From positions 1-64,000 of the IMG/VR virus record IMGVR_UViG_3300048861_000178: 64,000 bases of DNA, one strand, 5' to 3'. This stretch comes from a virus. Its lineage: Duplodnaviria; Caudoviricetes. Shown here in pieces: positions 49,839 to 62,837 of the stretch (position 1 is the stretch's first letter; each line of letters begins with the position of its first letter). The position numbers were made by a program, and so were the translations under genes. The notes under the pieces are model-generated. The model was not told the origin of the DNA and did not search any database. It worked only from the letters and a program-made list of their open reading frames with translations.

Positions 49839-51515
49839 ATGGCAATCCATGACTTGTGGTCGTTTGATAATGCGCCAGTGGGTACGAGTTTGCTCACCGG
49901 CACGACTGACCTCACCTCAACAACGGGTCCGAGCAACGTTTACAACTACTATACGGGCAATCCCGGTTGCACGTACACCTATACCAGCAGTCCGTTTGCA
50001 GTGGATGCGAACGGCTTTGCTAACTCGACGAATAACTCGAGCGGCAACGGCAGCATGATCTGGTTTAAGCTCGCCCAAGTACTGAATTTCACGACCTCGA
50101 CGAAGTGGGCGATTGGTTTTCGGACCAAGTCCAGTCAGGCAGTAACTGGTTCGACAGCGGGTCGTGTGTTTTGTACCACGGCAGGCTGGGCGACCGCTAT
50201 ATTGCGCACTTGGATCGCCGAAGCCGACCTCGTAGCCCCGGCCAACACGGAGCTGTATGTTGAGCTCGTGGTGGATTCTTCCCTGTTGACCTATTGGCTC
50301 TATATCAACGGCAGTCTCGTGCGCCAGACCGCCTATACGTCGGGGAATTTCCCCTCAACGGGTTATGCTGCTTTTGGCACCGGTAGTACGGTGGGAACTG
50401 CCAACGCCACACGCGGTTATCGGGACTTCTACTTCCTGGATTTTGATAGCACTGACACGACGCGCTTGGGTCCGATCCGTTCCTCGATCGCTTCCCTCTC
50501 GAACATTTCGGGTTCGGAATGGACGCTCAATAGTGCGGCCGACCTGCCGACCGCTTTGAATACCGTGTTGCAAAACCCGCCGATCACCACACCGAGTGCC
50601 TCGGCTCCGGCAGACAATCAGCCGATTACAGCCACCCTCGGGACAAGCCTGGCGGCGAATGTATCCATCATTGCAGTGCAGCCCATGATCTCCTTTATTG
50701 GGGATAGCGCACTGAATACGCTTGATCTGACGCTGACACAAAATGCTCAAGCGCTGGATCTCGGTAAGCTCGCGCCGCCCGTGTCTGCTAACCAGTTTAA
50801 TCAAAAGTGGGCGATTAGTCGTAAAGCTCCCGATGGCGGGATTTGGACCCCTACCAAGCTGGGTCAGACGTCGGCGTCCTTGACACCTGCGGCTCAGCGT
50901 ACTGTTGTCTTGCTGCACATGGAGAATACTACGGACGCCGCCGTATCGCGCACGTGGACACTCAATGGCACTGCAGCTATCTCTACGGCGCAAACAAAGT
51001 TCGGTTCTTCTTCGCTCACTTCGGGCAGCTCAGGCTATCTAAGCGCCCCCGTAGATGCGACCGAGGTCTTTGGTTCAACCTTCACGTTTGAATGCTGGGC
51101 GTATCGTAACTCCGGATTTGGTGATACCAATATCCTGAGCATGTCGACGCAGAACGATTCGACGCACCAAACCGGTATCGGTCAGCAGTCGAATATGGGT
51201 CTGGCGATTTACTTGACCGATGGTAAAGCCTGGCAGTCCTTGGCACCAACCTCGGCATTTCCGCTGAATCAGTGGAATCACGTCGCAGTGGTGTATAACA
51301 ACGGAGTCTACACAGGTTACATCAACGGCGTGGCACAGGGTAGCATTACCTCGGCTTCCACCTTCGGTTTGGCGGGTGCAACCTGTACGATTGGCGGAAT
51401 CCGCTACAACAGCGTTTCGCAGTTCCCTGGCTATCTCGACGAGGTCCGACTCAGTAATGTGGCGCGCTACACCGCTAACTTTACACCCCCGACTGCGGCC
51501 TTCGTGCTGGACTAA
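49839..51515 (+). CDS. family B lectin-like virion protein with a C-terminal LamG domain
   Basis: IHDLWSFDN, YRDFYFLD...RLGPI, APDGGIWTP, then FTFECW...WNHVAVV...DEVRLSNVARY. Confidence 0.82.
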   Translation: MAIHDLWSFDNAPVGTSLLTGTTDLTSTTGPSNVYNYYTGNPGCTYTYTSSPFAVDANGFANSTNNSSGNGSMIWFKLAQVLNFTTSTKWAIGFRTKSSQAVTGSTAGRVFCTTAGWATAILRTWIAEADLVAPANTELYVELVVDSSLLTYWLYINGSLVRQTAYTSGNFPSTGYAAFGTGSTVGTANATRGYRDFYFLDFDSTDTTRLGPIRSSIASLSNISGSEWTLNSAADLPTALNTVLQNPPITTPSASAPADNQPITATLGTSLAANVSIIAVQPMISFIGDSALNTLDLTLTQNAQALDLGKLAPPVSANQFNQKWAISRKAPDGGIWTPTKLGQTSASLTPAAQRTVVLLHMENTTDAAVSRTWTLNGTAAISTAQTKFGSSSLTSGSSGYLSAPVDATEVFGSTFTFECWAYRNSGFGDTNILSMSTQNDSTHQTGIGQQSNMGLAIYLTDGKAWQSLAPTSAFPLNQWNHVAVVYNNGVYTGYINGVAQGSITSASTFGLAGATCTIGGIRYNSVSQFPGYLDEVRLSNVARYTANFTPPTAAFVLD

Positions 51516-51595
51516 AGCGCGGCTAATGATGTGTATTCTGGCGGTTCTTATTCATCGAGGACCGTCAGTGCTGGGTTATTTTAAGAGGATTGAAC

Positions 51596-52672
51596 ATGAC
51601 TTTGCGAGCCTTGTGGACGTACGATCACATTGCCAACGCATCCGCTATTACCCTGACGTCACTGGCTGCCTATACGCCTAATAACGCGTACAATCTGCTC
51701 ACGGGTAATCCCGGTACGCCGATTCTACGCGCGGGTACAGCCAACGTGGTGATCAATGCGCTGGTGGCGGGTGCAGCACCTGGCGCGTATCGGGGTGGTG
51801 GTATTGGGTTTGGTAACAGCACCTCGCAGGCCCAGGCGCTGGTGGTCGCGCTTGCGGATGTACCGCTGCTGCAGGGCGGAGTGACCAAAGCGTATATCGG
51901 TTTTCGGACCTGGAGCTCGGTCATTCCGGCGCCGGGTACTTCTTCGGTCTTTGGGGTGGCGTCTTCCGCCACGGCTGTGCCGACTGCGCTGGTGAATGAA
52001 ACCCAACTGGCGCGCGTGGTGAATGTGACGCAGTACGTGGAGGTGATGCTCGACATTGCCAATAACCAGTACTCGGCCTGGGTGGATGGGCTTAAGATTG
52101 TCGATAAGGCGGCGCTTGTCGCAGGCTTTACGTATCTGGTGTTTGGCTCCAATGCGGTGACAACGAACTCCTGTAACTTCTCGTTTCAGGATTTCTACTT
52201 TGTCGACGCCGATGCGACGCTGCCCAATACGCGACTCGGTCCGATCCAGTCGGCTTTGGCAACCATTGCTGCGGTCAGTGCGCCGAACTATACTTCCAGT
52301 GACGCAAAGACGCCGCTGGCGGACTTCACCACTGCGTATAGTGCCGCGCCTGCTGCGACGCCAAACATTACCAATGCGGCGACCAATGATCCTGTCACGG
52401 TGAACTTCACTTCACAAGCCCCTGCTGGGGCAGGCATGATTGCGGTGCAGTACAAGATGGCAGCCAGCGTCACAGCAACTGCGCAGATGTCAGCACAGCT
52501 CAAGCAGGCCTCGACCACCAAGAACTTGCCCACCTACACGTTTAGCGACCTCACGATGGACTTTGGTCGTGATTTGTCGGGCGTGCAGACGACGGACCCG
52601 AGCGGCAATGCTTGGAGCGATGCAGGACTGGCGGCCACTGCGCTGATTGTTCAGCCGGTCTCGCTCACCTAA
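51596..52672 (+). CDS. family B lectin-like virion protein
   Basis: LRALWTYDH, GFRT, YVEV, FQDFYFVD...RLGPI, DPSGNAW. Confidence 0.82.
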   Translation: MTLRALWTYDHIANASAITLTSLAAYTPNNAYNLLTGNPGTPILRAGTANVVINALVAGAAPGAYRGGGIGFGNSTSQAQALVVALADVPLLQGGVTKAYIGFRTWSSVIPAPGTSSVFGVASSATAVPTALVNETQLARVVNVTQYVEVMLDIANNQYSAWVDGLKIVDKAALVAGFTYLVFGSNAVTTNSCNFSFQDFYFVDADATLPNTRLGPIQSALATIAAVSAPNYTSSDAKTPLADFTTAYSAAPAATPNITNAATNDPVTVNFTSQAPAGAGMIAVQYKMAASVTATAQMSAQLKQASTTKNLPTYTFSDLTMDFGRDLSGVQTTDPSGNAWSDAGLAATALIVQPVSLT

Positions 52673-52755
52673 GCAGCGGCATTGAGAGCCCTGTCGCTCT
52701 CCCCAAGGGAGGGTGGCGGGGTTCTTATGTTCGTTCTATCAAGAGAGTTAAGAGA

Positions 52756-53805
52756 ATGGCTATTCGAGATTTTTGGGGCTTTGACAATATCCCCCCTTAC
52801 ACGAGCGGTGCCACGGCGCTCAACTACTTACGGCCCGATATTACGGTCTCTAACTATTACCTTAGCTACGGAACCGTGTTGAAGGGTACTGGTAGCTGGG
52901 CGAACTGGCTTGTGTGCACCGGCGGCACTAACCCGTATCCGAACACGAACTACGGGACCTACAATCCGCTCATTTCTGTCCCCTATCAGAACCTCAGCGA
53001 TTTCACCACGACGCGTAGCTTTATGGGGATGCGGTTTCAGATCAATAACAACTCATTCTCTACCCAGGTGCTGTACCTACAGAACACGGCAGGCACCAAA
53101 CAGACGCTGTTGCTCAATACCCAGCTCGCCCTGAACACCTCGCAGTACGTCGAGGTGATGATTGATCGCACTAACACGCAGATTGTGGTATGGGTCGACG
53201 GCGTGCAGGTCTCGAGCACGTTCTTTGACTTCAATGCGTTTGTGTCGGCGGATGGTAATGCGTGGCTGGTATTCGGTTGTAACACTGGTTCTGCGCTTTA
53301 CACCTGGTACATGCGTGATGCGTACTTCCTCGATGACACCCAGGATGCCACGCAATGTAATCGTCTGGGTCCGGTGGATGTGCGCGCTCAAGCGCTCGCT
53401 TCGGTAACTGCACCGAACTGGGTGTCAAGCGACAGTGCAACCGCATTGGCGGATTTGTCGAGTCCCTTTACGACGACCGCTGGCTCACTCACTGCACCGA
53501 CGCTCACGGAACCATCGACGATGGACCCGGTGCAGTTTACGCTTTCCAACGCGAACCTCATCGCAGGCGAGAGCATTCTGGGCGTGAAAGCGGATATCAC
53601 CGGACAGCGCATCGGTGGTTACGCGTACGCGCCTCAGATCTCGATGAAGTGGAATAACCAGACTGTGAACGGCAAGCAAATGAAGTATGCGACCCCGAGC
53701 ACCTGGAACTACAACCAGAATGCTTTCCTGCTGGAAAAAGCGCCTGACGGGACACCCTGGACGCCGCAGGCGGTAGCAGGCGCCGTGGCAATCCTCACCC
53801 CGTAA
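52756..53805 (+). CDS. family B lectin-like virion protein
   Basis: IRDFWGFDN, YVEV, MRDAYFLD...RLGPV, APDGTPWTP. Confidence 0.82.
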   Translation: MAIRDFWGFDNIPPYTSGATALNYLRPDITVSNYYLSYGTVLKGTGSWANWLVCTGGTNPYPNTNYGTYNPLISVPYQNLSDFTTTRSFMGMRFQINNNSFSTQVLYLQNTAGTKQTLLLNTQLALNTSQYVEVMIDRTNTQIVVWVDGVQVSSTFFDFNAFVSADGNAWLVFGCNTGSALYTWYMRDAYFLDDTQDATQCNRLGPVDVRAQALASVTAPNWVSSDSATALADLSSPFTTTAGSLTAPTLTEPSTMDPVQFTLSNANLIAGESILGVKADITGQRIGGYAYAPQISMKWNNQTVNGKQMKYATPSTWNYNQNAFLLEKAPDGTPWTPQAVAGAVAILTP

Positions 53806-53820
53806 TCCAAGGGATCGAAC

Positions 53821-54903
53821 ATGGCTCTTCACGATTTATGGCATTTTGAAAATGCCCCGGTTGGCCAGAACTTGGTGTCGACGTTGTGGTCGTCCAGTGT
53901 GGCCTATACCGGAAGCGGCGGGCTCTATAATCAGAACACTGGGTTGCCGGGTATGTTGACCTATCAGGGCACCACGGCCAATACCTGGGCTGTGTCCGCC
54001 GATGGCTTTCTGGTCAATACAGCCAATGCGTCTGGTGCAGCGGGTTCGCTCTTTATTGCGACAGCCTCGGTGATGGATTTCACCACGCCGACGCAGTACT
54101 GGTTTGGCTTTCGCACCAAGCTGGTGGCAGGCACGCCGAGCGCGACGGCGAACTTCTTGATCGTCTCCAATACAGCAGGCTATGGTACCTGGTCTTCACT
54201 CCTGAGCGAGACCCAACTGATCAATGCAGGCTTGGCGGTGATTGGGGTCGAGCATTTTGTTGAATGCTTTATCAATCGCACGGCGCTTACGTTCCAGGTA
54301 TATGTGGATGGCTTGTTGGTGAATTCCGGCTCACTAACCAGTACCACCTTTTCGAGCACTAGCTTCCTGACCTTTGGCGCGGCCAACGGATCAGCCGGTG
54401 CGAATATGGCGCGGGGCTTCCGGGACTTCTACTTCTTGGACGTGGACGCCAGCACTCCTGGACGGTTAGGTTCAATCCGAGCAAAAGCGACGACGACCGC
54501 CGCCGCCAACGGTTCGGAATGGACCCCGAATGGTGCCGCCGATCTCGTCACAGCACTCAATACAGCCAACGCCAATCCCCCGGTGGTGACGCCTTATGTG
54601 CAAGCACCTACGGATAACCAACCACTCGCGCTGACGATGGCGACTAACATCGCTGCGGCGGGCAACAAGATTATTGCCGTGCAACCGTCGCTGTCTTATC
54701 AGTCCAGCGGCGCCGGGGTGGTAAAGGTAAACGCGAGCTTGCAAGATAGCGCCAGTAACACTACAGCGCTTGGTCAGTTTGTTAATGGGGGTGGGTTGCA
54801 GCTTAATCAGCGGCTACCCTTTGCTACCATGGCGCCGGATGGGTCCAGTTGGACACCGGCTAAGATTAACCAGAGTCAGTTTGTGCTGACTCCTACCTCA
54901 TAA
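53821..54903 (+). CDS. family B lectin-like virion protein
   Basis: LHDLWHFEN, GFRTK, FRDFYFLD...RLGSI, APDGSSWTP. Confidence 0.82.
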   Translation: MALHDLWHFENAPVGQNLVSTLWSSSVAYTGSGGLYNQNTGLPGMLTYQGTTANTWAVSADGFLVNTANASGAAGSLFIATASVMDFTTPTQYWFGFRTKLVAGTPSATANFLIVSNTAGYGTWSSLLSETQLINAGLAVIGVEHFVECFINRTALTFQVYVDGLLVNSGSLTSTTFSSTSFLTFGAANGSAGANMARGFRDFYFLDVDASTPGRLGSIRAKATTTAAANGSEWTPNGAADLVTALNTANANPPVVTPYVQAPTDNQPLALTMATNIAAAGNKIIAVQPSLSYQSSGAGVVKVNASLQDSASNTTALGQFVNGGGLQLNQRLPFATMAPDGSSWTPAKINQSQFVLTPTS

Positions 54904-54913
54904 GGGGGCGTGA

Positions 54914-56542
54914 ATGACGACAACCGTTCGCTATTTTGCCCCGCTCGTCTGGCAGGGTACAACCAGTTACGCGCAAGTCCGTCAGGCCTCGCCCGTAGCG
55001 TGGTCGCAGCAAAGCGTGAGCGCCTATCTGCGTAATGTGCAAGCGGTGCAGTGGTTTCAAAGCCCGACACCGGTGAATCTGCGCAAGGTGAGTGCGCTGC
55101 AATGGGCTCAGGACGCGTCGCTGGTCAACATGCGTCGTGCCGTGGCGTTGCAGTGGACGCAAGACGTGCTCGGCTTGAAACTGCGTAACGCGCAGGCGGT
55201 GACCTGGACGAAATCGTCTACGCGCGGTGTGTTGCGTCAAGCCTCCGCGTTTACCTTGCAGAAGTCTTCCACGCAAGGGGCATTGCGGCAAATCAGTGCG
55301 TTTACCTTGCAAAAGACCACGGTAGCCACCACCAAGGGCGGTCTCACCGGTTTGTGGGCGCTGATCCAGGCAGATGCGAAACAGACTATTTTGCAGTCAC
55401 AGCTTACAGTCAGTGCCCCGGTTGCGGACACCTCGAAGCTGAACTGCAATACGTACGTGACAGTGGCGCCGACCGGTGCATTGTTGCAGCAGTACTCGGG
55501 CACCACCAAGCTCTACTACAATCGCGTCGACATCAATAACGCTTTTCTGGGCGGCACCAATAACACCTGGAAGCTCGGCACGATAGCTTCAGCCACCACC
55601 ATCCGCGCGCTGATCCCCCAGATCAACACGCAGTATGGCTTGACGCTTGATCCGACCGATGTAGTAGACGGTCCGGTTGCAGCAGGGGCGACCAAGTTGC
55701 AGCTGGTGGCCGACCCGAACAGCTACGTGTTTAATCCGGGTACCTCTTTGTACCTGATGAATGCAACGTCGCTGGCGGCGGCCGTGACGGCAGTGAACTT
55801 GGCTGGTTTTGACAATGCAGCAGGTCAAGGCCCGCTGTCTTACCCGAATGTGGTGTTGAGCGACGCACCTTATGCCTACTACCGTCTGAATGAAACCAGC
55901 GGTACGGTGGCGAAGGATAGCTCAGGCAATGCGCGCAATGGGACGTACACCGGCGCACTGACCTTGGGTAACGCCACGCTGCTCACGCATGATACTGCCA
56001 AGTACCCGCAGTTCCCTGGTTCGGCGACTGCCTATGTGGACGTAACGGCGGCAAAGAACTTCTGTGCGGGTTCGCAATGGACGTTCGAAGCCTGGGTGAA
56101 TGTGACCTCGTATTCGACCAAGGGCGGCTACACAGGTTCGGCCAGCGGTCCAGCCATGCTCACTGACGTGGGCGATACGGGCAGTACGTCACCTGCTACG
56201 GGTCTTGAGCTCTCGTTGCTCGCGCTGGGCAACACGCAGCAAGGGTATTACTACTGGCCTGCGGACAACGTTTCGAGCGCAGCCACGGGCACCCCGATGC
56301 CGGTGGTAGGAACGGCCGTGCATATCGTCTTTACCTACAACGCCGGAACGGTGAGTATGTACAAGAATGGTGCCCTGATCCAGAGCTTCACGGGCGCTAC
56401 AGCGGCGACGATTCGTTCGTTCCTGCGGATCGGTGCAGGTGCATGGGTAGGCGGTCCGATGAACGGCATGATTGGTGAGGTGGCGTTGTACACGAAGGCT
56501 CTTTCAGCAGCCCGCATTCAGGTTCACTACAACAGCAATTAA
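54914..56542 (+). CDS. tail-fibre protein: eight 17-aa repeats, family A anchor module and LamG domain
   Basis: N-terminal repeats; YSGTTKLYYNRVDI; YYRLNETSGT.A.DSSGN...WTFEAWV...EVALY..ALS. Confidence 0.85.
   Translation: MTTTVRYFAPLVWQGTTSYAQVRQASPVAWSQQSVSAYLRNVQAVQWFQSPTPVNLRKVSALQWAQDASLVNMRRAVALQWTQDVLGLKLRNAQAVTWTKSSTRGVLRQASAFTLQKSSTQGALRQISAFTLQKTTVATTKGGLTGLWALIQADAKQTILQSQLTVSAPVADTSKLNCNTYVTVAPTGALLQQYSGTTKLYYNRVDINNAFLGGTNNTWKLGTIASATTIRALIPQINTQYGLTLDPTDVVDGPVAAGATKLQLVADPNSYVFNPGTSLYLMNATSLAAAVTAVNLAGFDNAAGQGPLSYPNVVLSDAPYAYYRLNETSGTVAKDSSGNARNGTYTGALTLGNATLLTHDTAKYPQFPGSATAYVDVTAAKNFCAGSQWTFEAWVNVTSYSTKGGYTGSASGPAMLTDVGDTGSTSPATGLELSLLALGNTQQGYYYWPADNVSSAATGTPMPVVGTAVHIVFTYNAGTVSMYKNGALIQSFTGATAATIRSFLRIGAGAWVGGPMNGMIGEVALYTKALSAARIQVHYNSN
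54926..55333 (+). repeat. eight tandem 51-bp (17-aa) coding repeats
   Basis: Each unit starts [VLM]R; six have W at position 9; the last two units are similar at DNA level (GCGTTTACCTTGCA). Confidence 0.85.
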
Positions 56543-56639
56543 GTGAGTGAGAGAGTAAAAAAATACTTGCATCCTATGCCGGGTCCGTATAAGAAGGACC
56601 CGGCAGTGCAGTAGATCACTTCTCCTTTAAGGAACGGAA

Positions 56640-57182
56640 ATGGCAAAAATCAACGCATCGTTGTCGGCGTTGGACAACCTGCTCGCGCTCGTCAATGCTG
56701 CTAATACCGGCCAAACGATCACGAACACGCAAGTGACTGCAGGTGCGCCCAGCGTCAAATCCGATACGGGTGACGGTCGTAACACCACGGTGGCACTGAC
56801 GGCTGTCGGTGGCCAAGGCTACACGGGTTCGGTCTCCGTCAACTACACGCGCCGGGGTCTGAACGACTCGGTGCTCAGCCCGGTCGATAGCTACACCGCG
56901 ACCACCGGTACCACGGCAGCTGCGCTCGTGACGGCGCTCGCCGCCCAGCTCGGCCTCGTGGAGTCGGAAGTCCACCTCGAAGATCCGGCTGACCCCGGTG
57001 TGGCGCTGTCGGGCGCACAGAGCGGCAATCAGGCCACGCTCGATCTGGTGGCTAACGCAGGTTCGCTGCTGTATGTGGATGGTTCGCTGCAAGCGATCAC
57101 CATGACCTGGCAGGCTCCGCAGGTCGCGCTGTCCACGGCTGTTGCGACGACGGACCTCACGGGTTTCGACGCCGCCAGCTAA
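56640..57182 (+). CDS. tail-fibre family A protein (anchor module only)
   Basis: LLALVNAAN, RNTTV, YTGSVSVNYTRRGL, ends LSTAVATTDLTGFD; ATCCTATG at 56571 upstream. Confidence 0.82.
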   Translation: MAKINASLSALDNLLALVNAANTGQTITNTQVTAGAPSVKSDTGDGRNTTVALTAVGGQGYTGSVSVNYTRRGLNDSVLSPVDSYTATTGTTAAALVTALAAQLGLVESEVHLEDPADPGVALSGAQSGNQATLDLVANAGSLLYVDGSLQAITMTWQAPQVALSTAVATTDLTGFDAAS

Positions 57183-57199
57183 GCATTTCAGTGCTGAGG

Positions 57200-57233
57200 A
57201 AAAGCGGGGCTTCGGCTCCGCTTTTTTATGCCG
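57200..57233 (+). terminator. UUCG terminator
   Basis: AAAAGCGGGGC-TTCG-GCTCCGCTTTTTT-ATGCCG. Confidence 0.8.
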
Positions 57234-57283
57234 TCAATTTCCACATGGTCATTTTATGACCTTTCCCTATTCTGGCGACAAGT

Positions 57284-58369
57284 ATGCAAATTGATCCGAC
57301 AAAGAGCGCTATCCAGAACCTGCTCGCGCTTGTCGATGGTTCGAACCCATCAGCACCTAATTTACCCAATGAAGTCACAGTGAGTGGCATCACCACAGGA
57401 AGCTTTGCCAACGGGACTGATACGAAAGTCACTTTGACGGGCACGGGCCCGCAGGGTAATTATGCCAACTTTACCGGTAGCGTTGACGTAACGTATAAAC
57501 GTCTCACCCTGGCGACTGAAGCTGCCAGCCCGACAGGCCCAGTCTCGCTGTCGCTCGGTACCAGTAAAGACGCTGCGCTGGCGACGGTGGCCCAATACTT
57601 TGGTTTTATTCCGACGGAGATCAGTGCACCCAGTTTCACGCCACAGGGTGCAGCGGGCAACCAGACAGTGACCTTGCAGGCCAGTGGTTCCTTGATTTAC
57701 GAGGACGGTTCAACCGACATCACGATTAATTGGACGTCGCCGAAGACGGTACTGCTGACTCACTTCGATGGTGCAGTCACGGATACCTCGGTGCCGGATG
57801 TTGCTTCGGGTGGGTCGATTGCCCTCAGTGGTGGAGCAACACTCACGACCACTACCAAGGTGTTTGGTACGGCGGCCTTCCAGGGTAGTGCCAGCAATCC
57901 AGCCTCGTGCGCGAGTGCTGGAGCGAACAACAAGTACATCATGTCGGGCGACTTCACGTTCGAGTGTTTCTTCATCCCGAACGCTGCCGACCTCTCCGGC
58001 GAGAGTATCCTGTTCTCCGAAGGTACGGGTTCTTATATCGATCTCTTCCACAATACGTGGTACGTGTCGCTTGGAACCACAAATGTGCACTTGATCAATG
58101 GCGTAGCTGCGAACCTGGTCGCTGGTACGACCTACCACGTGGCGCTGACACGTCAAGGCACGACCGTGACAATCTGGGTAAACGGGGTTTCGGTTACTAC
58201 GGCCAGTTCGTCATTGCCGTTTGGTGTGTCGGGCGCAAATATGAACATTGGCAATTACAACTCTAATGGCTACGGCGTGAAGGGCGTGCTGGATGAGGCC
58301 CGAATCTCCAATGTTGCTCGCTACACGGCTGCTTTCACCCCGCCGTCTGCACCGTTCACGTTGGACTAA
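57284..58369 (+). CDS. tail-fibre family A protein with LamG domain
   Basis: LLALVDGSNP, FTGSVDVTYKRLTL; LLTHFDG...DFTFECF...YHVAL.R...DEARISNVARY. Confidence 0.85.
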   Translation: MQIDPTKSAIQNLLALVDGSNPSAPNLPNEVTVSGITTGSFANGTDTKVTLTGTGPQGNYANFTGSVDVTYKRLTLATEAASPTGPVSLSLGTSKDAALATVAQYFGFIPTEISAPSFTPQGAAGNQTVTLQASGSLIYEDGSTDITINWTSPKTVLLTHFDGAVTDTSVPDVASGGSIALSGGATLTTTTKVFGTAAFQGSASNPASCASAGANNKYIMSGDFTFECFFIPNAADLSGESILFSEGTGSYIDLFHNTWYVSLGTTNVHLINGVAANLVAGTTYHVALTRQGTTVTIWVNGVSVTTASSSLPFGVSGANMNIGNYNSNGYGVKGVLDEARISNVARYTAAFTPPSAPFTLD

Positions 58370-59341: not shown

Positions 59342-59349
59342 CATATTAC
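59342..59349 (+). promoter_or_regulatory. early-promoter-like CATATTAC
   Basis: One mismatch to TATATTAC, intergenic. Confidence 0.45.
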
Positions 59350-59373: not shown

Positions 59374-59568
59374 ATGAAGAAGGATGTCCCTGTACTGGAT
59401 GATCCGCGCGAACGCGCTGCGACTGATCCGTATATTCTCGGTCAGCCCATGGGGTCGGTCGCCGCAGTGATTTTCGTGTGTCTGATGTTTGTTTTTCCTA
59501 TCGGGGCGGCAGTGTATTTCTACTACCACCCGATGACCCATGCTTGCACTCAGGACAAGTGCAAGTAA
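59374..59568 (+). CDS. small single-TM protein
   Basis: AAGGA RBS; hydrophobic VAAVIFVCLMFVFPIGAAVYFYY. Confidence 0.65.
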   Translation: MKKDVPVLDDPRERAATDPYILGQPMGSVAAVIFVCLMFVFPIGAAVYFYYHPMTHACTQDKCK

Positions 59569-59626
59569 GTTAGACCAAGTCCACTATCGCAACAACCTTT
59601 TACAACGTAAACAAGGAGTAATTAAA

Positions 59627-60187
59627 ATGGGTTTCTGGAGCAAATTTTTGGGTCGTGACGAAATCAACATCGACCAGCTCGAAGTCCTCTTCCACACAGA
59701 AGCCGCGTACTTCGGTGAACATGGCCGCCTCATTGCCAGCAACCGTTCGCTCGGCATCATCGAGAAGGAAGTGATCTTCTGCCTGAAGGGTCACACCAAG
59801 CCGCTGCCGCTGAACCATCGTCTGTTCGCGCACATCTGGAAGGAAGCGCAAGCGCAGGGCTTCATCCCCCTCGAACTCGCCAAGTACGGTTCGGTCATCG
59901 AGTCCGCGGAACCCGATGCCCTGGCTGCACACAAGCGCGTGCTGGCGATCATGGTCGAACACGGTCAGGCTCCGGCACTCGCCGATGGCCGTCAGGTGCT
60001 GCACATGAACCTGGGTGACAAGTCGGCAGCCGAAGCGGAAGCCGCTGTCTCGGGTGCGATGGCTTCGGCCGCTGCAACCAGCGGGCGTGATTACAGCAAT
60101 GTCGAAGTGCCTGCGTATCTGCGCAAGCAACAGGCTGAAGGCGAAGGCTTCCAGACGGCAGGCTTCGCAGCCGCTGCACAAAGCTAA
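59627..60187 (+). CDS. early protein with an N-terminal amphipathic helix and an FtsZ C-terminal-peptide-like motif
   Basis: AAGGAG RBS, ATG 59627; MGFWSKFLG start; DYSNVEVPAYLRKQ at 60089-60130. Confidence 0.8.
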   Translation: MGFWSKFLGRDEINIDQLEVLFHTEAAYFGEHGRLIASNRSLGIIEKEVIFCLKGHTKPLPLNHRLFAHIWKEAQAQGFIPLELAKYGSVIESAEPDALAAHKRVLAIMVEHGQAPALADGRQVLHMNLGDKSAAEAEAAVSGAMASAAATSGRDYSNVEVPAYLRKQQAEGEGFQTAGFAAAAQS

Positions 60188-60273
60188 GTAAGCCAAGTCG
60201 AGGTGCTTCCTCTGGGGAGCACCTCCGCTGGGCTTCACTTTTTATTTCCGTTATTGCAACGAGGAGAATTACC

Positions 60274-60849
60274 ATGTTGAGCAAACAGGTCAAGCAGCGT
60301 ATCGCATACAACAAGACAAAACGACAAGTGCCCGGCTGGAAGCGCGACTTGCGTGCTTTCTTCATCTCGCAGTTGCCCCCCGCCCAATCCATCCTGTCGT
60401 CCAAGCATTTCGTGGTGAAGGTGAGTGTACTGGGCGATGATGTTCTGACCCAAGAGTATCAGAACAAGCAGGCTGATGAAATCTTCAACAAGATCACCAC
60501 CTGGACACGCCATGACTGGCATGCCTACATCCGTTCGGGCGATGAAGCATACGCCCAGTACGTCGATCGTCGTGGTCGCATGCTGTCGGCTTATCGTTAT
60601 CGCCGAGCCGTTGTTCTGCCTGCTGATCCGGAGCAACTGGCTAAGGACTTCGAAGGCGACATGCTCAACGATCTGGCAGCCTGCGAATGCGGTCTCACGA
60701 TCGGCGAGCACAATCTCGGCGTGGTCTGCAAGGCTTGTAATACCGAAGTTCGCCATCCGACCCTTCGTCCGCCGACGCTCGACATCTACGGCCGGGAAAG
60801 CGACTACAAGAAGTTCCCCGACATCGATAAACCCGTGGAAGGAGAATGA
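60274..60849 (+). CDS. hypothetical protein with a zinc-ribbon motif
   Basis: GAGGAG RBS; CECG...VVCKAC. Confidence 0.75.
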   Translation: MLSKQVKQRIAYNKTKRQVPGWKRDLRAFFISQLPPAQSILSSKHFVVKVSVLGDDVLTQEYQNKQADEIFNKITTWTRHDWHAYIRSGDEAYAQYVDRRGRMLSAYRYRRAVVLPADPEQLAKDFEGDMLNDLAACECGLTIGEHNLGVVCKACNTEVRHPTLRPPTLDIYGRESDYKKFPDIDKPVEGE

Positions 60850-62829: not shown

Positions 62830-62837
62830 TATATTAC
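62830..62837 (+). promoter_or_regulatory. early promoter motif TATATTAC
   Basis: Exact match, intergenic, downstream of a terminator. Confidence 0.65.

Follow-up and report, generated by a model that had tools for sequence, protein, structure and literature searches.

An FtsZ-tail-like motif on a putative membrane-bound jumbo phage protein, a candidate decoy for the anchors of the division ring

Introduction

Among the small phage proteins which block the Z-ring, Qin DicB acts through MinC. Together with DicB, this group comprises T7 Gp0.4, the Kil proteins of lambda and Rac, and P1 Icd (PMC13423816, PMC3961180, PMC11897509). Gp0.4, Kil and Icd bind FtsZ itself, and for none of the group has mimicry of the FtsZ tail been described.

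This tail, the conserved C-terminal peptide of FtsZ (residues 370-383 in E. coli; PDB 2vaw, 9isk, 8h1o), follows a flexible and poorly conserved linker and has the core [DE]-[IV]-P-A-[FY]-L-R-K-Q. FtsA, ZipA, MinC, SlmA, ZapD and ClpX all dock on it (PMC4835091). Ile374, Phe377 and Leu378 drive the binding of ZipA (PMC8669495), Ile374 and Leu378 that of FtsA, ZipA and MinC, and the D373E and I374V substitutions likely lower MinC binding, with FtsA and ZipA binding kept (PMC4117426). The interaction of a single tail peptide is weak (Kd approx. 20 µM for ZipA, 50 µM for FtsA and 81 µM for SlmA; PMC4117426) and brief, since the peptide stays on FtsA for about 90 ms (PMC9098913). FtsZ fragments 354-383 inhibit the growth of E. 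coli (PMC10769210).

Here we describe a phage protein which carries a copy of this core behind a divergent linker, with the key hydrophobic and basic positions kept. Unlike in FtsZ, the copy is found on a non-tubulin protein, it is internal and is followed by a second motif; it has E-V-..-Y in place of D-I-..-F, and its front half reads as the upstream copy of betaproteobacterial FtsZ. Membership in the FtsZ/tubulin family was considered and rejected (186 aa, no Pfam match, no GGGTG signature). It is highly probable that the partner of the protein is some reader of the FtsZ tail. That the protein serves as a membrane-concentrated decoy for FtsA and ZipA and delays septation, the reading we favour, has in our judgement an even chance of being right. 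The proposed outcome, block of the Z-ring by a small phage protein, would be the same as for Gp0.4, Kil, Icd and DicB.

Results

The window, i.e. the whole stretch of DNA analysed, covers the opening 64 kb of a virus record 315,190 nt long, that of a jumbo phage close to Burkholderia phage FLC9. Among the sequencing runs listed, the best match was a soil metagenome, which may be the source, and none was an RNA data set. On its forward strand the ORF at 59627-60187 encodes a protein of 186 amino acids, the translation of which begins with MGFWSKFLG, as had been given in the first-pass annotation. The gene, which includes the PHROG 19581 core, is the ortholog of gp303 of Burkholderia phage FLC9, the nearest named relative of the protein. 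It is present in a single copy in its own genome and likewise in FLC9, RP31, FLC8 and one IMG/VR genome; in the phiKZ-like phage PA7 the family profile finds no homolog of it. In the relatives the gene stays between the DUF7941 block and thymidylate kinase. FLC9 gp303, ORF222 of RP12 and RP31, FLC1-1B gp244 and FLC8 gp177 have the same core in the same genomic position, and all are annotated as hypothetical; among these named phages only FLC9 gp303 has both tail motifs described below, the others end after the core or carry unrelated tails. Since a chimallin homolog (293360-295270 of the record, E 5e-33) and a PhuZ-like ORF of 334 aa with a tubulin-type signature (279634-280638 of the record) are encoded in the genome, the phage is a nucleus-forming one. 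All 13 of the 13 phage matches to the protein come from phages of Burkholderia or Ralstonia, and one relative is listed with an assembly of Paraburkholderia; thus, from the relatives only, we infer that the host is a member of the Burkholderiaceae.

Just upstream of the gene, tail-fibre-like genes (of the concanavalin/laminin G type or DUF7941-like) follow one another over 50000-58369 of the window, and this block precedes the gene in every relative examined as well. On the other side, at 60274-60849 of the window, a 191-aa ORF with a four-cysteine zinc-ribbon-like segment matches the N-terminal part of the phage RNA polymerase beta' family PHROG 2987 (E 2e-8). A similar zinc ribbon is fused to the PHROG 19581 core in the relative P0038. 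At G000:C1 158709-158878 a tRNA-His (anticodon atg) and a tRNA-Phe (anticodon aaa) are called by ARAGORN; such anticodons are unusual in bacteria and phages, and the calls may be wrong.

The strong ribosome-binding site noticed previously could be located as AAGGAG at 59613-59618, 8 nt 5' of the ATG. It closes a conserved leader (59586-59618, forward strand), which is nearly identical in FLC9 and in two IMG/VR relatives. A longer in-frame start at 59540 was rejected, since both the ribosome-binding site and all the homologs point to 59627, and a sigma-70 scan match at 59599-59628 is not credible, as it overlaps the ribosome-binding site and the start codon. Directly 3' of the stop codon there is a terminator-like hairpin with 21-nt arms and a 4-nt loop, followed by a T-rich run (60190-60235, forward strand). 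The 64-aa ORF upstream (59374-59568, forward strand), which has one hydrophobic segment and is the ortholog of FLC9 gp304 in the same place, is probably on one transcript with the 186-aa gene. The gene had also been assigned to an early cluster, and here the only sign encountered was a weak box at 59342-59349 (forward strand), which differs by one mismatch from the early promoter box of the phiKZ type. The 7-letter core of this box occurs in the genome about as often as chance would predict or less, and early expression is a conjecture. A perfect TATATTAC box lies at 62830-62837 of the window; it is probably the phage early promoter for the 62861/62894 gene. The genome contains 11 such boxes, six of them not more than 200 nt upstream of likely genes.

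The first 11 residues (59627-59659, forward strand) form an amphipathic segment with a hydrophobic moment of 0.50, a putative membrane-targeting helix. The median moment is 0.47 for the N-termini of the family as compared with 0.36 for the other N-termini of the same genome, and a moment of at least 0.5 together with a net positive charge is found in 41% of the family versus 10% of the control N-termini. In seven relatives a transmembrane-like segment replaces the amphipathic N-terminus. The N-terminal pattern (G-hydrophobic-hydrophobic-x-K/R-hydrophobic-F-G-x-K) matches the C-termini of host MinD and the N-termini of host MinE, and the MinD ends are nearly interchangeable with those of some members; unlike in MinD, the phage helix is generic, it is at the N-terminus and is not linked to a MinD ATPase. 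Mimicry of MinE was rejected (profile-profile probability 2.7%, A-K-E-R contact residues absent). The sequence has the high moment and the basic flank of membrane-targeting helices, and the protein would sit on the membrane through this helix; the idea of a MinD-like membrane helix, put forward in the first-pass annotation, finds support across the family.

Residues 14-95 (59666-59911, forward strand) were folded with high confidence by AlphaFold, using an alignment of 150 sequences, into three strands, a helix and a strand (pLDDT 84-98 for approx. 14-95, mean pLDDT 86 for residues 1-115), in agreement with the globular core noted before. Pfam gave no meaningful match either for the protein or for the 150 core sequences, and no sequence relation to Gp0.4, Kil, Icd or DicB emerged from the Pfam searches; the only family matched by the core was PHROG 19581, the function of which is unknown. 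A Foldseek comparison of the core with the PDB yielded no clear match, which does not establish a new fold. With respect to the folds of MinE, SepF and T7 Gp2, the best VIA-align result, T7 Gp2 (Z 3.7, rmsd 3.3 over 54 residues), is at the noise level, the BFVD fold search returned family members only, and in the Atlas fold search TM did not exceed 0.42. ESM Atlas features named after FtsZ scored below 0.9 and are a lead only. The core profile had no match in five host genomes. A link of the core to chimallin was rejected: the relative P0121 gave a weak tblastn match inside the chimallin of phiKZ-like phages (E 0.07), for which the family profile reached only 1.7 bits. The core is followed by the variable linker (residues 96-154, 59912-60088, forward strand), modelled with low confidence (pLDDT below 50 at 117-133 and 142-154), and the tail is of low confidence in AlphaFold as well.

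The FtsZ-tail-like motif comprises 14 residues (155-168; 60089-60130, forward strand) and exactly 18 further residues lead to the end of the protein, both figures being identical with those of the first-pass annotation. Its sequence fits the pattern [DE][IV]P.[FY]LR[KR], with the equivalents of Ile374, Phe377, Leu378 and Arg379. As in the case of the FtsZ C-terminal peptide, a flexible and poorly conserved linker stands ahead of it; due to the 18 trailing residues it is not located at the extreme C-terminus. The first-pass annotation had made conservation among homologs the test of the motif, and this came out strongly in its favour, since none of the 18 close homologs (48-89% identity) has lost the motif although their linkers have diverged, and P162 and R166 are invariant. 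Mean column conservation among these 18 homologs was 0.77 for the core, 0.31 for the linker, 0.80 for residues 160-167 and 0.66 for residues 169-183.

A profile made from the phage tails only, used in a blind search, gave three matches among 177,635 PDB sequences, and all three were FtsZ C-termini (E-values 0.019, 0.12 and 0.12). When the same profile was run on five Burkholderiales genomes, the ftsZ tail was the best match in four and the runner-up in the fifth, and in two of the five the upstream ftsZ copy was found, too. Matrices were also derived from host FtsZ tails only, the terminal one from loci picked by a fixed pattern and later checked on an unbiased sample. Under these, the score of the query tail was reached by 0 and 1 of 20,000 shuffled versions of it, and ORF 59627-60187 ranked first of the 1,875 six-frame ORFs of the genome with both matrices; 32 of the 131 distant representatives reached p<=0.01 as compared with approx. 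3 expected. Each single match is short and the E-values are modest, but the tests agree, and on these sequence comparisons the motif is more than a product of chance.

In the one Burkholderiales genome where the ftsZ tail came second, it was outscored by a 3-hydroxybutyryl-CoA dehydrogenase-like segment. Two dehydrogenase-like proteins (L128:1417-2691 and L134:1372-2682, both on the reverse strand) have a stretch near their ends which is nearly identical to the phage motif and which was taken as a chance look-alike. The likeness of the phage motif to FtsZ might also be that of a convergent, proline-capped short helix, by which the protein docks another phage protein or packs on its own core. 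The shortness of the match and the dehydrogenase stretch speak for this explanation, which we nevertheless hold to be quite unlikely. It is weakened by the fact that no other ORF of the same genome carries the motif, so that it is not a shared tag here, and the motif-less relatives do not have a copy of it elsewhere in their genomes either. Moreover, the motif variants track both host copies, the close relatives L138 and L139, with F in place of Y164, being even nearer to the host, and the terminal motif of the host is also found at the end of an unrelated CsrA-like phage protein (see below).

For the comparison with the host, 30 ftsZ genes of Burkholderiaceae were sampled without bias. Nearly all of them have D-I-P-A-F-L-R-K-Q as the terminal copy. 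A second copy, D-Y-G/S-A/N-L-D-T-P-A-V-W-R, is situated approx. 35 residues from the end of FtsZ in 26 of the 30; in the literature no description of a partner of this upstream copy was found. Relative to the proline, the phage consensus corresponds to the upstream host copy from -7 to -2 and to the terminal copy from 0 to +6. By its sequence the phage motif is thus a hybrid, the front half of one host copy joined to the back half of the other. In the first-pass annotation it had been matched with E. coli FtsZ; the likeness to the tail holds, but the D-Y is two residues out of register in that match and falls in register with the upstream copy of betaproteobacterial FtsZ. Some distant relatives carry two motif copies, like host FtsZ, and several have the upstream-type form only, with V-W-R. 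The equivalents of E. coli I374, F377, L378, R379 and K380 are V/I, Y/F, L/M, R and K in the phage proteins. The query has E-V where the hosts have D-I, and V is present in 16 of 18 phage copies, compared with 28 of the 30 terminal copies of the hosts having I; this V may originate from the upstream host copy and not from selection against MinC. The motif may have arisen either by capture from ftsZ or by convergence.

The front half, which follows the upstream host copy, and the relatives with the upstream-type form only, also bear on the identity of the partner. The motif could be aimed at ClpX (as a decay timer or a ClpXP decoy), at MinC, at ZapD or at the reader of the upstream copy. The FtsZ tail is indeed a listed ClpXP degron (PMC8138137) and MinC, SlmA, ZapD and ClpX dock on it (PMC4835091). 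We consider this unlikely, since throughout the family the motif lies inside the protein, whereas the degron is C-terminal, the E-V pair argues against MinC if the E. coli genetics carries over, and sequestration of MinC or ClpX would favour division. FtsA and ZipA remain the preferred targets.

The core is common to 147 representatives (50% clustering), and the tails behind it vary from none to more than 300 residues. The strict motif pattern, for which two regular expressions were written after seeing the data, occurs in 16 of the 147 versus 0.015 expected; the family members are related and these counts are not independent events. In these proteins the motif sits 27-121 residues past the core and 17-210 residues from the protein end, in tails otherwise unrelated. 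On the core tree, which rests on only 94 columns, the strict motif requires nine changes, and at least five gains or losses are forced by supported branches. About three quarters of the core family lack the motif, among them ORF222 of RP12 and RP31, FLC1-1B gp244 and FLC8 gp177. Since most relatives have the core without the motif, the FtsZ-like tail is an add-on, probably acquired by an older core which would be bound to the membrane and have a separate job.

A second motif, G[FH]x[ST]xGFxAA, is found at residues 174-183 (60146-60175, forward strand) and in 17 of the 18 close homologs. At least seven distant relatives have it, in some of them without the FtsZ-like motif or ahead of it, and the G[FH]x[ST]xGF part moves independently of the FtsZ-like motif among the relatives. 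No consistent host match to it was obtained in five Burkholderiales genomes. Taken together, the interpretation in the first-pass annotation is partly supported, as to the conservation, the likeness to the FtsZ tail and the membrane helix, and it had overlooked the widespread and mostly motif-less core, the second motif, the hybrid make-up and the substitutions which in E. coli likely weaken MinC binding.

That the core is conserved, syntenic and mostly motif-less indicates that it has a job of its own, and these same features would suit a motif which binds FtsA or ZipA in order to bring the core to the midcell or septal membrane. In this case division need not stop, and the core or the second motif would do the actual work, e.g. 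in organising the membrane beside the phage nucleus, or through an effect on some component of the divisome. The low one-to-one affinity of the tail fits localisation better than competition, and several relatives carry the motif mid-protein with 100-200 more residues behind it. However, motif-less orthologs would miss their address, yet they persist in related phages, and FtsZ tail fragments are inhibitory when expressed. A purely localising role thus seems rather unlikely to us, and the decoy for FtsA and ZipA is preferred.

FtsZ-like tails were also seen on other scaffolds. A pattern scan of IMG/VR revealed a CsrA-like family, represented by a 67-aa protein (L150:7365-7568, reverse strand; IMGVR_UViG_3300044262_000062, 40 kb) with the exact 11-residue host FtsZ terminus at its end. 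The match of this protein to Pfam CsrA is weak (E 0.085), its scaffold is unrelated to the PHROG 19581 core, and in eight homologs the last residues are D-L-P-L-F-L-R-K-Q-A-D or a variant of this. A viral ORF of 174 aa (L147:10728-11252, forward strand; IMGVR_UViG_3300002220_001492) has an exact internal D-I-P-A-F-L-R-K-Q and no Pfam match. With the CsrA-like family also carrying the terminal motif of the host at its end, imitation of the FtsZ tail looks recurrent among phage proteins.

Discussion

The phage protein probably either jams or rides the host division ring. In the decoy model, the N-terminal helix would place the protein on the cytoplasmic membrane, at the inner face occupied by FtsA and ZipA; of the steps proposed, this one is well supported. 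The linker would then present the copy of the FtsZ peptide, which would fill the tail site of FtsA and/or a ZipA-like protein. The weak one-to-one affinity would be offset by concentration on the membrane, by high expression and, perhaps, by association of the core with itself. If the genetics of E. coli is a guide, the exchange of D-I for E-V would spare MinC, so that the inhibitor of the Z-ring would stay free with the anchors blocked. Assembly or constriction of the Z-ring would be delayed, and the infected cell would not divide during the time in which the phage nucleus is located at midcell. We favour this model because the ZipA-binding positions are kept, the E-V pair is present, FtsZ tail fragments are inhibitory and the candidate hosts encode FtsA, ZipA_C and MinC_C proteins.

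A complex of Paraburkholderia FtsA (residues 1-382, alignment of 45 rows) and the phage tail (alignment of 18 rows) was predicted with a score of 0.20, under the mark of 0.32, in a run made with no controls, and this score was counted neither for nor against the model. Since the binding of a single peptide is weak and brief, a one-copy decoy must beat the avidity of the FtsZ polymer, and this needs local concentration or oligomers.

A role in clearing midcell for the phage nucleus is a suggestion. As about three quarters of the family are without the motif, nucleus-forming phages as a whole do not need it. The nucleus of phiKZ is misplaced when SulA causes strong elongation (PMC10328376), thus a long block of division is not plainly useful for the phage.

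In its widest form, the proposal would be that a family of nucleus-forming phages has repeatedly grafted the FtsZ tail on a membrane scaffold and tuned it to block FtsA and ZipA and to spare MinC, and that betaproteobacterial FtsZ has an unstudied second docking site; this we put forward tentatively, as a somewhat doubtful possibility. In the literature, the coverage of which was incomplete, no paper on a phage FtsZ-tail mimic or on the motif string was found. FLC9 is a cultured phage with an ortholog, and the orthologs of RP12, RP31 and FLC8 are natural motif-less controls.

The known phage division inhibitors seize FtsZ itself, and imitation of its tail, directed at the anchors, would be a different route. 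If the model is true, the protein would be a natural selective probe that discriminates FtsA and ZipA from MinC, and it would give a handle on the second motif copy of betaproteobacterial FtsZ. It would also be a first candidate to explain how some nucleus-forming phages keep the septum off their nucleus at midcell.
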